Source: Alphaproteobacteria bacterium (GTDB lineage: Bacteria; Pseudomonadota; Alphaproteobacteria; UBA828). From it: a DNA stretch of 64,000 nt. Position 1 is the first letter of the stretch; every line of letters begins with the position of its first letter. This document shows positions 2,269 to 12,329 of the stretch, in pieces. A model generated the notes under the pieces. It was not told where the DNA came from. It saw only the letters and a list, made by a program, of their open reading frames with translations, and made no database searches. The position numbers and the translations under genes were made by a program. Location: NCBI GenBank assembly GCA_965237415.1, contig CBDEFM010000002.1:64001-128000 (forward strand). Direction: 5' to 3'.

Positions 2269-2739
2269 CGCCCGCCTCCTTCTCCGTGGCCGTCCCGTCC
2301 GCCATGTCCTCCGTCGGGTTCGCTGCCGCTTCGAGCAGCAGCGCCGCCAGTATCGGGATTACCGCCCCTCGCATCGCCGGCGTGAGTGCCGGACCCGGCT
2401 CCAGTAGTTCCAACAGCTCTCCCTGTCTTCCCATGTCGCCCTCCCAAATCCATGCGGGAGGGCGATGGTAGAACAGCGTCGATGTCCGAACGGAGGTCGC
2501 GCAGGGCGTCCACCGTAGCGCGATCCGCGGCTGATCCGTCACCGTCATCGCCGCCGCGTCTGGAAAGCACATCCAGGTCGGTATCTGCGCCAGCGTGCCA
2601 TCCGGCTGGCGGACGACGTAGATCATGGTCCCCTTGAAGCGGTGGCGCCGAACCACTTCCACGCGCTGGCCCGTGCGGGGGTGGAAGGGGTAGTGGATCT
2701 TCGTCGGACCGCCCTGGTATCGGGCAGTGTGTGGCTGTT
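2249..2739 (-). pseudogene. Accessory genes of a serine-recombinase element (YPFHP-type small protein, probably frameshifted, then a ~61 aa ORF overlapping the recombinase start)
   Basis: Frame EQPHTARY...IHYPFHPRTGQRVEVVRRHR...QPDGTLAQIPTWM, a motif set usually seen upstream of such recombinases; small ORF 2434-2249. Confidence 0.6.
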
Positions 2740-3363
2740 CCGCCCGGCGCCGGCAAAAGCCATCTTGCCTCTGCCATCGGCCTCGCCCTGGTCGAGAACG
2801 GCTATCGCGTACTCTTCACCCGCACCACCGATCTGGTGCAGCGCCTGCAGGTGGCAAGGCGTGAGCTCGCCCTGGAAAGCCAGCTCGCAAGGCTCGACCG
2901 CTACCATCTTCTGATCCTCGACGACCTCGCCTACGTGCAAAAGGATCAGGCCGAGACCAGCGTCCTCTTCGAGCTCATCTCGGCGCGCTACGAAAGGCGC
3001 TCTCTTCTAATAACCGCGAACCAGCCCTTCGGAGAATGGAACAAGGTGTTCCCGGACGAGACCACTGCGGTGGCCGCCGTCGATCGCCTCGTCCACCACG
3101 CCACAATCCTCGAGATGAACGTCGAGAGCTATCGCCGCCGCGCCGCGCTCGACAGACGAAAAAGGGGACCGGGGCGGCCCGCCAAGATCGCCACCGAGAA
3201 AAACACCACCGAGGACTGAGCCACGCACGGGTGCCGCCCCGGCGGCGCTCACGCTCGCTCCCTGCGGCCCGTCGGCATCTCAGTCGGCGGGCCGCACTTT
3301 ACTCCACGCATCCCGGCCGCAATCCCCCACAGCGATATCGCACCGATCGATCATGCGGACGCT

Positions 3364-3513
3364 CCGCGACAATCTGTGTGTGTCGCGCCGCGACAATCAA
3401 CGAGACGAAGGCCCTTGCAATGCCCGACGCTGCCCGCAATCATGCGCCCGCCGCTGGCGCCGGGAATCTCACCCTGATTGACGCGCGGCTCTCATCCAGA
3501 TCGTCGCGCTATA
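3364..3513 (+). repeat. IS21 right-end repeated transposase-binding motifs
   Basis: CCGCGACAATC at 3364 and 3388; inverted variants TGATTGACGCGC (3475) and GATCGTCGCGC (3499); element probably ends at ~3513. Confidence 0.6.
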
Positions 3514-4115
3514 AGTGGGCTCGGGTGGGGTGAAGAGGCCGTTCGCGCACTGGCGTGCTGTAGCGGCACCCGATGCTAAGCCTGGTCCGAACCATTTTGT
3601 CGCCTCGGTCACTGATGGCGCGGGTTTCCCGCGACCTCGTTGTGTGCCCAGCATGCTCGGTAGCTGGGAAGTGAAAGTCTTCTATCCAACCTGATGGAGG
3701 TGAAGGATTAGCAAAGCGCAAGGGCATCCCCGCGAGGTGGTGTCTGAAGGAAGCGTGGAGCAAAACCGCGACCTGACGAACAGAAACCGGATATGAGGCA
3801 GGCTTGGTCGGACGAGCGGGCAACGGATCGCGAAGTCCATATCCATCAAGGCCAAGTTTGTAGATCCGGCAGGTGTGCGGGGAAGGCGACCGAGCTTACC
3901 TGGGGAGGCCTGTGCCGTGTTCCAAGTCTGGAACTGAGGGAACTGCAAGGGGACCTGATCGCGGCGCAGGAGTCAGCAGACGGCATAGTAGGTCAGGCAG
4001 TCGGCAAAGCTATTTAGGCACTCCAAGGCCGAGAGGTGGAGCAACAGATAAGCCGAGCCGGTAACGATGGCCGAAGGCCTGAACGATTGGAAGCGGCAAG
4101 TAGGACGGACAACTC

Positions 4116-7100
4116 ATGCGTGGAAAGCGGCAGAACATCCAGTACTCACTGGCCTTGGAACTATCTGAGCGGGGTGAAACCCTGGTCGGCGGCTACCAAG
4201 GGACCGAACCACCTGTGGCGAAGCCCGACCCCGAAAGCCCGGCCTTGGCGGAACAGCTAATGGAGGAGATGTGCGGGCGGGAAAATTGCGAAACTGCGTG
4301 GAAGCACGTTCGAAAGAACAAGGGCGGTCCCGGCGTCGATGGGATGACCATCGACGAGGCCGCGGACTACCTGCGTGAGCACTGGCCAAGCATTCGGTCT
4401 CAACTGCTCGACGGAACCCACCAGCCCCAGCCGGTCAAGAGGGTCGAGATACCCAAGCCGGACGGCGGGGTCAGGAAACTCGGCGTCCCCTGTGTCGTCG
4501 ACAGACTGGTCCAGCAAGCCGTGTTGCAGGTTCTTCAGGCGCAATGGGACCCGACGTTTTCCGAACACAGCTACGGGTTCCGCCCGGGGCGCTCGGCCCA
4601 TCAGGCGGTGGCTCAGGCACAAGCGTATATTGCTGAGGGCTACGGTATCGTGGTTGACATCGACCTCGAAAAATTCTTCGACCGTGTCAACCAGGACCGA
4701 CTGATGGCTCGCGTTGCCGAACGGGTCTCCGACAAACGGGTACTCAAGCTGATCCGCGCCTTTCTCAAGGCCGGAGTGATGGAAGACGGGCTGGTTTATC
4801 CGGTTGACGAGGGGACCCCGCAAGGCGGTCCGCTTTCGCCTCTCCTGAGCAATCTCGTGCTCGATGAACTCGACAGGGAACTGACACGACGCGGCCACCG
4901 GTTCTGCCGGTACGCGGATGACTGTGTGCCACGAAGGCACGAGGAGGCTGAGATGATTTAGCCACCGAAGGGCCGTGCTGCACGAGAGATGGGGGTCGGC
5001 CCCCCGGAGCCGCCGTGCAGGCGGAGGCTTCAAACCACCCACTGCTGCTGTGTTCAAGAGACATGGTAGTGAGCGAGTGGGAAAAGGCAGGGCAATACCC
5101 TGTCAGGTAGGGATCGCGGAGTCGAACGCAAGTGAACCACTGTCAACGTGTCGAAAGCGTGTGGACGACGTCAAAACCGAGGGGTAGTCGTTACCTCGGG
5201 ATGAGTTCGGAAGGAACCTGCTTACTGACCGAATGGCGTCCGGCACAAAGGTGGCGAGACCGCGATCCAGGCTCTTCGGAACCTGTCAACGACTTTGAGA
5301 CAGTGACGATTGCGATTTACTGAGCAGTTTCTCCTGTTGTGGGTGTCACAGGTAGGTTGATCCAGACGGCTTGGGGAAGGGGATCCGGTTGTGGGATCCC
5401 TCGAACGAAGCGTTCGGGATGACGGGTCCAGGCGGCTTGAAGGGTCCGCCCGCGCTGCTCCAGCACGCTCTGGGTTCGATTGTGATGCACGTCGTCCGGG
5501 GTGAGCATCGCGATCCCGCCATGGCGATGTTCGGTGTTGTACCAAGGGAAGAACGTTCGGCAGAAGGCGATCGCGGCGGTGATGTCGTGGAAGCGGCCAG
5601 GGAAGCCGGGGTGGTACTTCAGGGTCTTGAACTGCGCCTCGGAGAAGGGGTTGTCGTCGGACACCTGAGGGCGGCTCAGTGAACGGGTCACGCCGAGGTC
5701 GGCGAGCAGTTGTGCGGTGCACTTGCTCGTCATCGGCGCGCCGCGGTCGGAGTGCAGGGTGAGCACCTGGGGCTGGACGCCCTGTTTGTGGCAGGTCTCT
5801 TCGATGAGACGACCGGCCAGCGCCGAGTTCTCCCGGTCTGCGACCATCCAGCCGACCGCGTAGCGGCTGAAGATGTCGAGCACGACGTAGAGGTAGAAGT
5901 ACGTCCACTTGGTCGGCCCCAACAGCTTGGTGATGTCCCAGGACCAGGTCTGGTTCGGCGCCGTGGCCACCAGCTCGGGCTTGATGTACTGGGGATGCTC
6001 GCGCTGATTGCGCCGCTCTCGGACCGGCTGATCGGCGGCCAGGATCCGATACATCGTCCGCTCCGAGCACAGGTAATGGCCTTCGTCGAGCAGCGTCGCC
6101 ACGACCTCCGCCGGCGCACGGTCGACGAAGCGCGGGCCGGCGAGCACATCGAGGATCTGCTCGCGCTCGGCTTCACACAGCGCCCGGGCGGGCGTTGGAC
6201 GGGGCTGCCGGTGCCCGGGAGTTGACCTCTGACGACGGTAGAAGGTCGCCCGTGACACGCCCAGTGCTTGGCAGGCCGGCGCCACGCCGACCTGCGCCGC
6301 AAGCGGTTGGACCGCGATCAAGAGCGCGTTCCGTGTTCGAGGTTCAATCCCAGCAGCCCGGCAACTTTTCCCTGCACGTCCAGGATCGTGTGCGCGGTGT
6401 GCAACTCGTGCTCCAGGCGAGCCACTTGCGCCTCGAGCGCGCGCACCTTCGCATCCAGCGGGTTGCGTTCGGCCGGTTTCGCGCCGCGCTTCTTCGCGGC
6501 CAACTCCCGCAGCGAGCCCTTGCGCCGCGCCTTGCGCCAAGCCGTCAGATGCGAGCTGTACAACCCCTCGCGGCGAAGCAGGCGGCCCACCTCGCCGGGC
6601 TGTGTGCAGCGATCCGCCTCCTCCAGAATCCGCAGCCGATACTCTGCGGTGAACTGGCGCCGCTTCGGCTTGGCCACAACCTCCGGGTCCGGGGTCGGTC
6701 TGGCGCGGCCGGCCCTGGGGGCCTCGTCGCTACGCTCCTCGACCCCCAGGGCCGGAACGGAAACCTCATTCAATGTCATCGAGTCTCTCTCTGCGGTCAT
6801 CGGTTTTCACCTCCGCCGCCCTACAGAAATTCCAAAGGTTGCTGGTGTCTCAGTGATGTTGGCAGAGAGGGCTTGTGCGGAACGTGGGAACCTGTCGCTT
6901 CGATGCCAAGGAAGAACCGCAAGTGGAGGCCCCACGAGCGGGAGAGTACCGATGCGGAGCACAGGGGCGGAGCGACCCGTAGTAGCGATGAAAGTTCTGT
7001 AATGGGGCTGGAGCGAAGGGGTTGCCCTATGCGGTTCGGGAAGTCGGGGCAACCGGCGACGGGAGGACCTTGATGGACCGGACGAAGCCGTTTCCCATCA

Positions 7101-8969
7101 GCAAACGTCAGGTCTGGGAAGCCTGGAAGAAGGTGAAAGCCAATCAGGGTGGGGCGGGGATTGACGGCCAGGCAATAGAAGCGTTCGAGGCCAAGGTTGG
7201 AGACAACCTGTACATGCTTTGGAACCGCATGGCGTCGGGCAGTTATCATCCGTCTCCGGTTCGACGAGTTGAGATTCCCAAGGCGGACGGCGGCGTTCGT
7301 CCGCTGGGGATACCAACGGTGGAGGATCGGGTAGCCCAAACGGTGGTGAAAGAGGTACTGGAGCCGGAACTGGAAAAACACTTTCATTCGGACTCCTACG
7401 GCTATCGGCCGGGGAAATCGGCTCACCAGGCACTGGGGCAGGCGCGAGAGCGCTGCTGGCGAAGTGACTGGGTGCTGGATCTCGATATCAGGTCGTTTTT
7501 CGACACGTTGGATCACGACCTGCTGCTTCGCGCAGTGCGCCGCCACACCGACGAGAACTGGGTGGTGCTGTATATCGAGAGGTGGCTGAAGGCCCCGGTA
7601 ATGCTGCCGAGCGGGGAGGTAGAAGAGCGGGATCGAGGCACGCCCCAAGGGGGTGTCGCAAGTCCGTTGCTTGCCAACCTGTTCCTGCATTATGTGTTCG
7701 ATTTGTGGATGGAGAGGCACTACCCGGCCATCCCGTTCGAGCGTTATGCCGACGATATCGTCTGCCATTGTCGCAGTGAGCGGCAGGCACACCATCTGAA
7801 GGGCGCACTGACACGTCGCTTTGAAGCCTGCGGGCTCGCGCTGCACCGGGAGAAGACGAAGATTGTCTACTGCCAGGACAGCGATCGACGAGGGAAGCAC
7901 CCCGTAACATCCTTTGACTTCCTGGGCTACACGTTTCGGCCCCGGCGGTCGAAGAACAAGTGGGGCGGGTTTTTCGTCAGTTTTAGTCCGGCGATCAGCA
8001 ACAAGGCGGCGAGAGCGATTCGGCGGGAAATCAGGAGTTGGAATCTGCATCGACGCAGTGACAAGAGCCTTGACGACCTTGCCCGAATGTTCAACGCAAC
8101 CATCAGGGGGTGGATCAACTATTACGGGGCCTTTTACAAGTCGACCCTCTTTGCCCCCTTGCGGATGATCGACAGGAGGCTCGCGCTTTGGGCCACGCGC
8201 AAGATGAAGCGTTTTCGGGCGCATCGGAGACGCGCTGCGCAATGGGTTGCCGACTGTGTTCGCCGGGACCCTAACCTGTTCGCACATTGGCGCGTTATTT
8301 ATCGTACGGCTGCATAGGAGGAGCCGTGTGAGCCGAGAGGTTCAAGCACGGTTCTGTGAGCGCCTCGGGGTGAGATTCCCCGGGGCGACTCGACGTAACA
8401 TCTACGTCCGCAGCCAGCGCGCCGGCGAACGTGTCATGGCCTCCGTGGCCAGGTTCCTGACCACGACGCTACGGCTCAAGGTCAACGAGTCAAAGAGCGC
8501 GGTCGCGCGACCGGAGGAGCGCAAGTTCCTGGGGTTCAGCATCGCGAATGATGGGAGCGAACGGCGCATCGCGCCGCAAGCTCTCGCGAAGTTCAAGGCG
8601 CGAATTCGGGACCTCACAAGCCGGACGCGGGGAATAAGTCTGCACCGGATGATCGAAACGCTAAAGCCATACCTGATGGGCTGGCGCGGCTACTTCGGTT
8701 TCTGCCAGACCCCGCGCGTGCTCACGAACCTGGAAGCGTGGATACGCCGAAGACTGCGTGCGTATCTGTGGCGACAGTGGAACAACGGTCACAAACGCTT
8801 CAAGGAGCTCCGCCGCCGGGGACTCTCAAAGGACCAAGCCGCCATCGCCGCTGGCTCGCCGACGGCGTACTGGCGCATGGCCGGACATGTGGTGGTCCAG
8901 CAGGCCCTACGCAACCACCATTTCGACTCGCTCGGCCTCCCCAGACTCTACACCCCTGCTGCGGCCTAA
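4116..8969 (+). CDS. ltrA: Class C group II intron reverse transcriptase/maturase, split (4116-4923 + 8395-8969; 460 aa when rejoined)
   Basis: GPGVDG, IPKPDGGVRKLG, SYGFRPGRS, GTPQGGPLSPLL; the rejoined junction GAC T|GT AAC reads YADDCNIYVRS in frame; GWRGYF maturase motif. Confidence 0.93.
5317..6321 (-). CDS. IS3-type OrfB DDE (rve) transposase
   Basis: PNQTWSWDITKL, LDIFSRY, LHSDRG, DNPFSEAQFKTLK; overlaps the OrfA stop; exact start uncertain (frameshift or coupling). Confidence 0.9.
   Translation of the reverse strand: MIAVQPLAAQVGVAPACQALGVSRATFYRRQRSTPGHRQPRPTPARALCEAEREQILDVLAGPRFVDRAPAEVVATLLDEGHYLCSERTMYRILAADQPVRERRNQREHPQYIKPELVATAPNQTWSWDITKLLGPTKWTYFYLYVVLDIFSRYAVGWMVADRENSALAGRLIEETCHKQGVQPQVLTLHSDRGAPMTSKCTAQLLADLGVTRSLSRPQVSDDNPFSEAQFKTLKYHPGFPGRFHDITAAIAFCRTFFPWYNTEHRHGGIAMLTPDDVHHNRTQSVLEQRGRTLQAAWTRHPERFVRGIPQPDPLPQAVWINLPVTPTTGETAQ
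6318..6800 (-). CDS. IS3-type OrfA (HTH)
   Basis: DPEVVAKPKRRQFTAEYRLRILEEAD...LLRREGLYSSHL. Confidence 0.85.
   Translation of the reverse strand: MTAERDSMTLNEVSVPALGVEERSDEAPRAGRARPTPDPEVVAKPKRRQFTAEYRLRILEEADRCTQPGEVGRLLRREGLYSSHLTAWRKARRKGSLRELAAKKRGAKPAERNPLDAKVRALEAQVARLEHELHTAHTILDVQGKVAGLLGLNLEHGTRS
7073..8317 (+). CDS. ltrA: Class D group II intron RT/maturase, intact ORF, no endonuclease domain
   Basis: KPFPISKRQVWEAWKKVKANQG, LWNRMASGSY, GTPQGGVASPLLANLFLHY, FERYADD, GWINYYG. Confidence 0.95.
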   Translation: MDRTKPFPISKRQVWEAWKKVKANQGGAGIDGQAIEAFEAKVGDNLYMLWNRMASGSYHPSPVRRVEIPKADGGVRPLGIPTVEDRVAQTVVKEVLEPELEKHFHSDSYGYRPGKSAHQALGQARERCWRSDWVLDLDIRSFFDTLDHDLLLRAVRRHTDENWVVLYIERWLKAPVMLPSGEVEERDRGTPQGGVASPLLANLFLHYVFDLWMERHYPAIPFERYADDIVCHCRSERQAHHLKGALTRRFEACGLALHREKTKIVYCQDSDRRGKHPVTSFDFLGYTFRPRRSKNKWGGFFVSFSPAISNKAARAIRREIRSWNLHRRSDKSLDDLARMFNATIRGWINYYGAFYKSTLFAPLRMIDRRLALWATRKMKRFRAHRRRAAQWVADCVRRDPNLFAHWRVIYRTAA

Positions 8970-9120
8970 TTCGGTCGAACCGCCGTGGTACGGACCCGTA
9001 TGCCCGGTGGTGTGGGAGGGGCGGCATCGTGAGATGCCCCCCTATCCCGATCAAGAGAATGGGACTTCGAACATGGTTCCTCCCCGCTCGCGACGGAGAT
9101 GAAACCTGGGAGGATGTTCC

Positions 9121-10539
9121 ATGGCGCGCAAGTCTCGAAGAACCCAGCGCCTCAGGGTGGTGAACCCGGACTGCGCAGGGATCGACATCGGCAAGGACCG
9201 GCATTTCGTGGCGGTCGACCCGGAACGCACCGAGGAGCCGGTGCGTTCGTTCGGCGCCTTTACCCGCGATCTGGAGGAGATGGCGGCGTGGCTAGCGTCG
9301 TGTGGGGTGACCAAGGTGGCGATGGAATCGACCTCGGTCTACTGGATAGCGGTCTACGAGACGCTGGAGCGCGCGGGCTTCGAGGTGATGCTGGTGCCGC
9401 CGCGCATGACGAAGCAGATCGGCGGGCGCAAGAGCGACGTGTTGGACTGCCAGTGGATCTGGCAGCTGATGTCCTACGGCCTGCTGCGGGGAGCGTTCCG
9501 TCCGGGCGACGAGGTTTGCCCGCTGCGCTCCTACGCACGCCAGATGAGGCGGCTGACCGGGGACCGCTCCCGCTGCGTCCTGCACATGCAGAAGGCGCTG
9601 ACCGAGATGAACGTCAAGCTCGACTCGGTGATCGCCAACATCGTGGGACTGACCGGCCAGCGCATCCTGCGCGCGATCATCGACGGCGAGCGTGACCCAG
9701 AGCGCCTGGCGACGCTCCGCCACCGGGGCATCAAGGCCGACGCCGATACGATCGCCGCGAGCCTTCAGGGGACGTGGCGTGAGGAGCATCTGTTCGCCCT
9801 CGAACAGGCCATGCAGCGCTACGACTTCCTGACCCAGCAGATCGACGACTGCGAGGCCCGGGTGATGGCCGAGATCGAGCGCCTGACACCGCCGGACGAT
9901 CTCCCGGACGGCGGCGCACCGGACCATGCCCCCGGCACGACCTCCGAAACCGCGTCGAGCCGCTCTGCGAACGCCGCAAGCAACTACACCGGCAAGGAGG
10001 GCATCCAGGCCCTGGCGTTGCGCGGAATGATGGGCGTCGACCTCACCGCGATCCCCACCATCGGTCCCGGTACCGCACTGGTGATCGCCTCGGAGATCGG
10101 CCCGGACTTCTCCGCCTTCCCCTCCGCCCAGCACTTCTGCTCCTGGCTTGCGCTCGCGCCGGGAACCAGGATCAGCGGCGGCAAGAACCTCCCCGGCAAG
10201 TCCCCGAAGGCGGTCAACCCCGTCGGGCAGGCCCTGCGCATGGCGGCCATGGCCGCGCGCCGCAGCGAGACCTTCATCGGCGCCAAGCACCGCGCAAGGC
10301 TCGCCCGAATGGACACCCCCGTTGCGATCAAGGCGACCGCCCGCGAACTCGCCTGCCTGATCTACCTCATGGTGACCGAAGGCCAGAAATACGTCGAGCA
10401 GGGCATCGACGCCTACGAGAAGCGGCGCCTCAACAGAAAGTTCGCTCATCTCGACCGCCAAGCCCGAAAACTCGGGCTCCAACTCGTCCCGGCACCGCAA
10501 AACGACGAAACGCAAAACTCAATGCCGTCAACTGCTTAG
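9121..10539 (+). CDS. IS110-family transposase (bridge recombinase), intact
   Basis: RuvC-like DEDD motifs AGIDIG, AMEST, KSDVLDC; C-terminal IPTIG...LAPGTRISGGK (serine motif); ATARELA. Confidence 0.95.
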   Translation: MARKSRRTQRLRVVNPDCAGIDIGKDRHFVAVDPERTEEPVRSFGAFTRDLEEMAAWLASCGVTKVAMESTSVYWIAVYETLERAGFEVMLVPPRMTKQIGGRKSDVLDCQWIWQLMSYGLLRGAFRPGDEVCPLRSYARQMRRLTGDRSRCVLHMQKALTEMNVKLDSVIANIVGLTGQRILRAIIDGERDPERLATLRHRGIKADADTIAASLQGTWREEHLFALEQAMQRYDFLTQQIDDCEARVMAEIERLTPPDDLPDGGAPDHAPGTTSETASSRSANAASNYTGKEGIQALALRGMMGVDLTAIPTIGPGTALVIASEIGPDFSAFPSAQHFCSWLALAPGTRISGGKNLPGKSPKAVNPVGQALRMAAMAARRSETFIGAKHRARLARMDTPVAIKATARELACLIYLMVTEGQKYVEQGIDAYEKRRLNRKFAHLDRQARKLGLQLVPAPQNDETQNSMPSTA

Positions 10540-11245: not shown

Positions 11246-12263
11246 TGTTAGCGACGGCTTAGGAATGCGCGTATTTGCTGCATTTCTGGAGTTGGACGTG
11301 GTCGGCGGTTGATGCTGACGATCAATCCGAGGTGCCTCCAGGGTGCGTCATCGACATCGGGGTCGCGGCGGTAGCCGAGGGATCGCGCGACGCCTTCGAG
11401 GGGATAGGCTCTCAGGGTCTCGGCCTGCACCCGCCCGTACCATGGCGAGAGACGATCTATGACTACGCCGCCGACGGCGGCTCGCGGTCCAGGGCGTCGG
11501 CCTTTCCGGCTCGCCGACGGCCTGCTGCGCCCCGGCGGCGGCGGCGCTCTGCGCTGCGCTTCTTCTGGCGTTCCTCGGCCTCCTTTCGGCGATAGGAATC
11601 GCCGTCGATGGCGATGATCTCGGCGTTGTGGATGAGGCGGTCGACGAGGGCGACGACGCAGGCGGCGTTGGGGAAGGCTTCGCTCCACTCGGCGAAGGGC
11701 CGGTTTGTGGTGATTATGGTGGAGCGCTGCTGGCTGCGGCTGGAGACGATATTGAACAGCAGATCGGCATGGCGATTGCTATAGGAGAGGTAGCCGACCT
11801 CGTCGATCACCAGCAGCTGTTGGCGGGCGTAGAATCGGAGCTTGCGCTGGAGCAGGCTGTCGCTATCGAGGGCGGCGAGCTCACCGAGCATGTTTCCTGC
11901 AGTTGTGAAGCGCACGGTGTGCCCCTCGATGATGGCGCGGTGGGCGAGGTTGGCGGCGATGGTGGACTTGCCCACCCCGTTTGGGCCGACGAGGACGACG
12001 TTGGCGGCCTCGCGCAGGAACTCGAGGCTCATGAGGTCCTCGATGACCATTGGGTCGCAGCGGCGGGGCCAGTCCCAATCGAAGTCGACGAGGGGCTTGA
12101 AGTGTCCAATGCGGGCCTCGCTGAGGCGCCGCTTGAGGCTGCGGCTTCGCCGTTCTTCCTCTTCCCAGGCGATGAGGGTGGGCAGCCAGCTGCACTCGCC
12201 GATGTCGTCCCAGTGGGCGATGAGGCCGTACAGGCGCAGCGCGCGGGCACGGTCCTTGAGGGT
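11246..12263 (-). mobile_element. istB: Partial IS21 (istB + right end); inverted copy of 38367-39384
   Basis: Same IstB translation and same terminal TGTTAGCGACGGCTTAGG as the full element; both spans are 1018 bp. Confidence 0.92.
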
Positions 12264-12329
12264 ATCGTAGGCGGTCCTGCGCGGCCGCAGCGCCTTGACG
12301 CGGGCGTCGGTCAGGATGACCTTGGGCAT
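12264..12329 (-). pseudogene. Tyrosine integrase N-terminal (arm-binding) remnant fused in frame to IstB
   Basis: MPKVILTDARVKALRPRRTAYD resembles the N-terminus of P4-like integrases. Confidence 0.6.

Follow-up and report, generated by a model that had tools for sequence, protein, structure and literature searches.

An RmInt1-like group II intron at the YADD codons of a reverse transcriptase gene, in a nest of three mobile elements from a sponge-associated alphaproteobacterium

The window analysed here, a stretch of 64,000 nucleotides from an alphaproteobacterial genome assembly (GCA_965237415.1, contig CBDEFM010000002.1, positions 64,001 to 128,000 of the forward strand), contains a group II intron inserted in the reverse transcriptase (RT) gene of another group II intron, at the codons of the catalytic motif YADD. 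The closest described systems are the introns B.th.I3, M.a.I5, UA.I3 and P.l.I2. According to the relevant sections of Tourasse & Kolstø 2008 (PMC2504315), B.th.I3 is located in a retron-like RT gene at AGGTATGCTGATGACT, a sequence encoding RYADD, and has the same specificity as the three other introns. Like the window intron, all four have intron-binding sites 2 and 1 (IBS2 and IBS1) composed of RYADD codons, and the target of B.th.I3 ends with GATGACT, as does the window target. The same sections describe the group as having an intron-encoded protein (IEP) without endonuclease domain, a B-like RNA, a length of about 1.8-1.9 kb and a location as twintrons in the RT genes of other introns, all features of the window intron, and cite Dai & Zimmerly 2003. 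The specificity of B.th.I3 for YADD is repeated in PMC6199540, and a full-text literature search for YADD targeting found an explicit statement in PMC2504315 only. The targeting of RYADD codons is thus already published, and the locus is a further example of a known specificity; an initial annotation of the window, made from the letters alone, had singled out codon-tolerant targeting of the catalytic motif as notable. The points added here are incremental and concern the G residues facing wobble positions, the gap at a fourfold-degenerate site, the host range, the tolerated mismatches and the weak case for self-avoidance.

The window copy differs from the B.th.I3 group, to which it is likened by target and description, in its sponge-associated bacterial host, an IS3 element in domain I and a mismatch between exon-binding site 3 (EBS3) and the exon base +1. 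As portrayed in the parts of PMC4075523 and PMC4615759 that deal with them, RmInt1, RmInt2 and Sr.md.I1 resemble the window intron in an IEP of about 414-419 aa with RT and X domains only and in the core of the class D motif. The target layout of RmInt1 (PMC4075523) is also that of the window intron: a 5-nt IBS2 and a 7-nt IBS1 (-7..-1) are separated by the gap at -8, and EBS3 is a single nucleotide. However, the pages cited place RmInt1 in an insertion sequence (IBS1 GATGAGA; PMC4075523) and the class D intron Sr.md.I1 in the IS66 transposase gene (PMC4615759), whereas the window intron homes into RT genes (IBS1 GAYGAYT). In the twintrons of Thermosynechococcus elongatus, as outlined by Mohr et al. 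2010 (PMC2882425), a conserved site within one mobile group II intron is likewise the homing target of another, and the layers are independently mobile. The inner introns there have no open reading frame (ORF), however, and are inserted into the outer ORF after its first ATG and before its second, not at the catalytic motif as in the window.

Three mobile elements are nested at the locus: an outer group II intron contains an inner group II intron and the latter contains an IS3-family element, both introns being on the plus strand. The whole reading, a nest of an outer group II intron, a class D inner intron that reads YADD codons and a later IS3-family insertion, is given a probability of about 0.9. 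An endonuclease-less IIB-type class D intron would have invaded the RT gene of the outer intron, and the IS3-family element would have hit later. EBS2 GCGUG reads TACGC, i.e., the Tyr codon and the first two Ala bases, leaving the third Ala base (-8) unpaired; EBS1 AGUCGUU reads GATGACT, i.e., both Asp codons and the first base of the next codon; and the single-base EBS3 would read +1. Since G faces the synonymous pyrimidines and the fourfold position falls in the gap between EBS2 and EBS1, every synonymous spelling of Y-A-D-D can be read, and the homes of such introns include the RT genes of several intron families that are unrelated to one another. By analogy with published RmInt1 work, the intron would enter by reverse splicing into DNA at replication forks, with priming by nascent strands. 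The locus shows how a retroelement can subsist on others, through RNA-DNA reading of the one nucleotide string that is indispensable to reverse transcriptases. The features of the nest are as follows.

3642..9051, plus strand: outer group II intron, 5410 nt including all nested layers
4116..4923, plus strand: outer RT ORF, 5' part, ending with ...RYADD and the T of a Cys codon; RVT_1 profile positions 1-155 of 205
4911..4923, plus strand: target site TACGC-G-GATGACT, with IBS2 at -13..-9, unpaired base at -8 and IBS1 at -7..-1
4924..8394, plus strand: inner group II intron of IIB type (class D), 3471 nt (1873 nt without the IS3-family element)
4991..5108, plus strand: domain I substructure of the inner intron, RF01999, 122 bits (cut-off 36), E 9.8e-25
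5157..5161, plus strand: EBS2 GCGUG, in an internal loop of the consensus fold, 5/5 pairs with TACGC (-13..-9)
5186..5192, plus strand: EBS1 AGUCGUU, in the terminal loop of a covarying stem
5248, plus strand: candidate EBS3 (A), intron position 325, proposed from covariation only
5274..6871, minus strand: IS3-family element, 1598 nt, including one copy of its 3-bp CTT target duplication
7073..8317, plus strand: inner RT/maturase, 414 aa, RVT_1 1.2e-40 and GIIM 1.2e-16
7745..7757, plus strand: the inner intron's own YADD site, TATGCCGACGATA, with the motif GACGATA at 7751-7757
8319..8394, plus strand: domains V and VI of the inner intron, RF00029, 55.8 bits (cut-off 40)
8395..8969, plus strand: outer RT ORF, 3' part, (C)NIYVRSQRAGERV..., maturase domain GIIM 5.9e-21

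The 5' part of the outer RT ends with CGG TAC GCG GAT GAC T at 4923, and its frame, read straight into the inner intron, stops at 4961. The outer exon restarts at 8395 with GT AAC ATC TAC GTC, so that the joined product reads RYADD-C-NIYVRSQRAGERVMASV. The split of the Cys codon directly after YADD (TAC GCG GAT GAC T/GT) had been noticed in the initial annotation and is confirmed by two kinds of empty sites: an uninterrupted homologue of the outer RT gene in a genome of the same genus (L104), where RYADDCNIYVRSQRAGERVMASV is the product of deleting 4924-8394, and contigs from sponge samples. The coordinates 4911-8400 given earlier for the intron point to the right element and include 13 nt and 6 nt of exon; the intron itself occupies 4924-8394. 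Its termini, GTGTGCC... and ...CTCGAC, with GTGTG at 4924-4928 and GAC at 8392-8394, fit the GUGYG and AY ends of bacterial group II introns. The inner ORF is located downstream of domains I to III in the consensus fold of relatives. Its product carries RVT_1 and GIIM only, besides a sub-threshold RdRP_1 match that overlaps the RT domain; a domain profile search found no endonuclease domain in these 414 residues. The protein ends 8 residues after ...LFAHW in the C-terminal string ...PNLFAHW, and database proteins 93% identical to it exist. Apart from the interruption, both RT ORFs are intact, and each of the two introns is present in a single copy in the genome.

The exon-binding sites were assigned from an alignment of the window intron, freed of its insertion sequence, with the 5'-terminal 470 nt of 56 relatives, and from a consensus fold of 12 relatives. 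EBS1 forms 7/7 pairs with GATGACT, two of them G-U, as proposed earlier, and where lineages have a different target, this column of the alignment changes together with IBS1, e.g., GGCACTT with AAGTGCC and GGTTGTG with CACAACC. The EBS2 proposed at first, CGTGT near 5147, lies in the conserved GTGTCGAAA strand of a stem and was replaced by GCGTG at 5157-5161. In relatives EBS2 reads GCGTA, and locus L084 shows a compensatory change in which IBS2 TATCA is matched by EBS2 TGGTA. The column of the candidate EBS3 is the best Watson-Crick partner of +1, with agreement at 31 of 40 junctions and at 21/21 in the lineages with targets other than YADD.

Relatives were collected by an alignment-based scan with one genome per species, which gave 78 loci. 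The 5' end was assigned in 56; the other 22 ended at a contig end or had no GTGYG (L024, L025, L043, L048, L051-L053, L055, L060, L067, L069, L074, L075, L077-L079, L082, L085, L087, L089-L091). A single exon base is available for L047, which leaves 55 readable 5' junctions. In 22 of these 55, T[A/T]Y GCN GAY GAY N, the codons of Y/F-A-D-D, stands right before GTGYGCCAYGA, and the relatives at this site span at least six phyla, as judged from their record titles. This tabulation of the exon junctions of homologues, which the initial annotation had suggested, agrees with its view of the inner intron as one of those homing into the YADD codons of other RT genes. Two of the 22 are deviant, L084 with Y-Q-D-D and L046 with a 2-nt duplication at the junction. 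In L046 (2947-2955) the host junction reads GAT GAG ACT/TT instead of GAT GAC T/TT, and the host frame is shifted.

Base counts at host sites refer to 22 sites, i.e., 21 loci and the window, with L046 excluded. The Asp codons are spelled GAT GAC in 10, GAT GAT in 6, GAC GAC in 4 and GAC GAT in 2. Position -11 is C in 8 and T in 14; position -8 is G in 11, C in 7, T in 3 and A in 1; and position -1 is T in 12, A and C in 4 each and G in 2. Meanwhile, the EBS1 core GUCGUU is identical in 23/23 introns, every synonymous pyrimidine is faced by an intron G, and the fourfold-degenerate Ala position is unpaired. Because the EBS1 core is constant across all four Asp-codon combinations, codon-tolerant reading occurs in nature, and the idea that one EBS1 accepts both Asp codons is borne out. 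The first EBS1 base is less constant, being U in 3 of the 4 cases with A at -1; opposite C or G it is A in 6/6, mismatched. Concrete, testable rules follow from the 22 natural sites, which comprise four combinations of Asp codons and hosts from three ribozyme families and in which mismatches are tolerated at both -1 and +1.

A one-off ectopic insertion by retrotransposition, in which YADD was hit by chance and the lineage had no specialisation, would agree with the single genomic copy of the inner intron and with the EBS3 mismatch at the window site. Chance landing is excluded by the 22 of 55 junctions at the same codons; the same EBS1 and EBS2 accompany these codons in the relatives and in a finished Sinorhizobium meliloti plasmid, where the same habit is seen with a YADD-F host, and YADD specificity is set out in the published text already cited (PMC2504315). 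Such an accident is therefore very improbable, and a lineage habit of homing into YADD codons is preferred.

Two observations on YADD-homing relatives deserve mention. The S. meliloti plasmid (CP140952.1, L096) carries two head-to-tail YADD-homing introns (2343-4217 and 4218-6078) in a single host RT of the YADD-F type, an arrangement that would result if another copy had homed between exon 1 and the resident one, and a third copy is located in another RT gene 2.6 kb downstream. In L020 (2007-3410; also L024 and L025, from one metagenome-assembled genome) a further RT ORF of 440 aa (FADDWLV) and a domain V-like match lie inside the YADD-homing intron; locally, this inner ORF and the host RT have the same sequence, a sign of possible recombination or reciprocal nesting.

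All typed hosts are group II introns, and they fall into three of the D1-D4 types of Rfam: RF02005 (L029, L030, L042, L056, L070 and L093), RF02003 (L045, L046, L057 and L086) and RF02001 (L023, L025, L050 and the window). The homer's own type, RF01999, was the host type in none of the 13 typed loci, nor in the window. GIIM scored above the cut-off in 8 of 16 ORFs of the 3' exons. In a PADLOC scan, the generic group II-like RT model was the best match for 15/15 host ORFs of the 5' exons, and there was no sign of retron or defence RT hosts among these 15, a sample that does not show that such hosts are never used.

Each layer of the nest keeps an empty allele in sponge-associated populations, as found in contigs from sponge metagenomes and metatranscriptomes of several studies, the depths of which are not read as copy numbers. 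The joint of 4923 to 8395 is exact and skips 3471 nt (runs X3, X16 and X2). The joint lacking the IS3-family element, 5273 to 6872, skips 1598 nt, and three letters fit both sides, as expected from the CTT duplication (X1, X16 and X2). The joint lacking the outer intron, 3640 to 9051, skips 5410 nt (X1, X16 and X2). As all three joints also occur in X2, which is a DNA run, they represent empty DNA alleles and are no evidence of RNA splicing. The empty alleles for all three layers indicate that the nest is a recent, still-segregating polymorphism; the locus was recently active and offers a natural system for the turnover of nested mobile elements.

The region is rich in repeats, and among the contigs listed none bridges 4923/4924 with at least 31 letters per side, both of which would suit an assembly chimera of repeated elements. 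The same architecture is nonetheless shared by 22 independent loci and a finished plasmid, L104 shows the reading frame restored exactly, and record 14 of X2 runs through 4896-5273 and then 6872-6973 with zero differences. A chimera is thus extremely unlikely, and the nest is taken as a genuine structure.

The assignment of the inner intron to class D (RmInt1-like), also made in the initial annotation, appears well supported by its protein sequence. Its RT shares 62-66% identity with the RTs of introns that occupy the RmInt1 or IS66 target, contains the PNLFAHW core and has no endonuclease domain. For the introns at the RmInt1-type target (L031, L035, L040 and L044) the identity is 62-64%; these nest among the relatives, RmInt1 itself being unnamed in the set, and IBS1 of L044, GATGAGA, is that of wild-type RmInt1 as given in the part of PMC4075523 on its target. 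The class D C-terminal motif is stated in the corresponding part of PMC4615759 as LX3AX3PXLF[V/A]HW, and the consensus of 32 family members, L-x3-A-x3-P-x-L-F-A-H-W, matches it exactly.

A different placement would put the inner intron with B.th.I3 in a separate endonuclease-less group, named 'g2' by Toro & Martínez-Abarca 2013, making the class D label wrong. B.th.I3, with the same target AGGTATGCTGATGACT, is placed in g2, and some YADD-homers carry FADD, said to be typical of that group. Against this, the window RT has YADD together with the class D C-terminal core, and in the tree the YADD-homers enclose the RTs to which it is 62-66% identical, those from the RmInt1 and IS66 targets. Placement in g2 is accordingly improbable, and class D is retained.

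The tree is a quick maximum-likelihood tree of 74 RTs, unrooted and with long branches removed. YADD-homers are interspersed in it with lineages of other targets, implying at least five target switches, and the AU test rejects a single clade (p 0.00014), the tested group having been named after the tree was seen.

Five relatives (L032, L054, L058, L062 and L071) are IS66-transposase homers, which cut after K-Y/F-A/L-D-H, at GATCAY C. Their 5' junctions lie near 2940-2963, and at 295 in L062. The IS66 transposase host gene is Pfam-confirmed for L032 and L054. EBS1 of these introns is AGUGGUU or AGUGAUU in L032, L058 and L071, and GGUGGUC in L054 and L062; the former are one or two bases from AGUCGUU, and the closest one-base step matches the difference between GATCAY and GATGAY. 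No description of this one-base link between the IS66 and YADD targets was met in the literature, though a class D intron that targets IS66 has been described in print.

It may be proposed, tentatively and with more doubt than confidence, that reading of the RT active-site codons is a hub specificity in class D, from which single-base changes of EBS1 repeatedly retargeted descendants to look-alikes in transposase genes, and that the change of Y to F in the intron's own motif (FADD) is a partial self-protection. The look-alike strings would include K-Y-A-D-H of IS66 (GATCAY, with EBS1 AGUGGUU) and H-L-D-E of the IS630 type (GAYGAGR, as for RmInt1), the direction of change being unrooted.

Several findings weigh against the reading of the nest as set out above, or narrow it. 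The window has G at +1 opposite the A of EBS3, a mismatch, and -1 is mismatched in 7 of 23 natural host sites; because of both, recognition must be looser than a strict 13-bp code. RmInt1, in the portion of PMC4075523 on its pairings, also has a G facing the Asp wobble position (GUC versus GAT). The wobble tolerance may for this reason be inherited and involve no special adaptation. The presence of the joint of 4923 to 8395 in the DNA run proves an empty allele and not splicing. The junction at 4923/4924, for which the contigs listed include none with at least 31 letters on each side, is backed by relatives and not by reads. Finally, the window protein reads V-x3-V-x3-P-N-L-F-A-H-W, where the core of the class D motif is exact and V replaces the motif's L and A.

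It was also thought that the intron avoids its own gene through a mismatch next to the splice site. The mismatch itself is present, as the own motif GACGATA (7751-7757) produces an A.A clash with EBS1 at -1. In its fuller form, this idea makes the hyperparasite self-immune, because the base after its own YADD is A and not T. The residue after the own YADD is A, V, I, S or T in all 25 YADD-homers listed (24 distinct sequences), the first base of that codon being always G or A and never T (23 sites and L020/L024/L025), and the absence of hosts of the own RF01999 type among the 13 typed loci and the window would fit as well. In addition, 6 of 24 distinct YADD-homers versus 2 of 47 others have FADD as their own motif, and with it a further mismatch at EBS2 (Fisher p 0.015, uncorrected for kinship, with at least three origins), and PMC3552965 describes FADD as typical of the group holding B.th.I3. 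The loci with their own FADD motif are L036, L050, L056, L072, L083 and L093.

The pairing itself speaks otherwise. The own site, TATGCCGACGATA followed by T, forms 5/5 pairs with EBS2, 6/7 with EBS1 and 1/1 with EBS3 (+1 T with A), in total 12/13; the occupied host site forms 5/5, 7/7 and 0/1, also 12/13. The identical -1 mismatch is found in the 7 of 23 natural host sites mentioned above, the sites invaded in L056 and L093 are spelled ...GAYGAYG, as most own sites are, and FADD is the motif at three host sites. The U-first EBS1 of L029, L070 and L084 pairs 7/7 with the own site through G.U, and the own sites of L029 and L070 pair 5/5 at EBS2 as well. A purine at -1, judged from the residue after YADD, is family-wide (24/24 distinct homers and 43/47 non-homers, p 0.29). 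The claim of avoidance via the -1 mismatch is thus not upheld, and self-immunity by base pairing is weakly founded and not established; its addition to the hyperparasite reading seems doubtful. Self-avoidance, if real, is not accounted for by simple base pairing.

The IS3-family element inside the inner intron, absent from the initial annotation, comprises orfA (6318-6800, HTH_Tnp_1) and orfB (5317-6540, rve); CTT stands at both of its flanks, and other copies in the genome are 76-83% identical. It interrupts the basal helix of domain I in the 3' strand (pairs 61-71/366-376 of the consensus fold) and puts 1.6 kb between domain I and domains II-VI. Since the basal helix is split, the inner ribozyme of the present copy is probably inactive, and so is, with the frame of the outer RT cut, the outer RT itself. 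The earlier suggestion that the outer maturase depends on inner splicing is sound insofar as the outer frame is cut and meets a stop at 4961, but with the inner ribozyme cut by the insertion this dependence is probably moot.

The 5' end of the outer intron at 3642, GTGTGCCCAGCATG, aligns with the 5' ends of the host introns L023, L050 and L025. An RF02001 match lies within the intron (3726-3895, 140 bits), and domains V and VI are represented at 8978-9051 by a weak match, which at 30.5 bits does not reach the cut-off of 40. A 5' end at 3514, the end of a repeat common to two other loci, was considered and dropped in favour of 3642 after the alignment of host introns and the finding of the empty-site joint.

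The nest is surrounded by an island of mobile DNA (2731-3513, 9121-10539 and 11463-12329). It comprises two IstB-like genes, the first of them truncated, and an IS110-family transposase gene that directly follows the outer intron. The 114 nt downstream of the truncated IstB-like gene are repeated at two other loci with 100% identity, and 128 nt lie between the repeat end at 3513 and the start of the outer intron at 3642.

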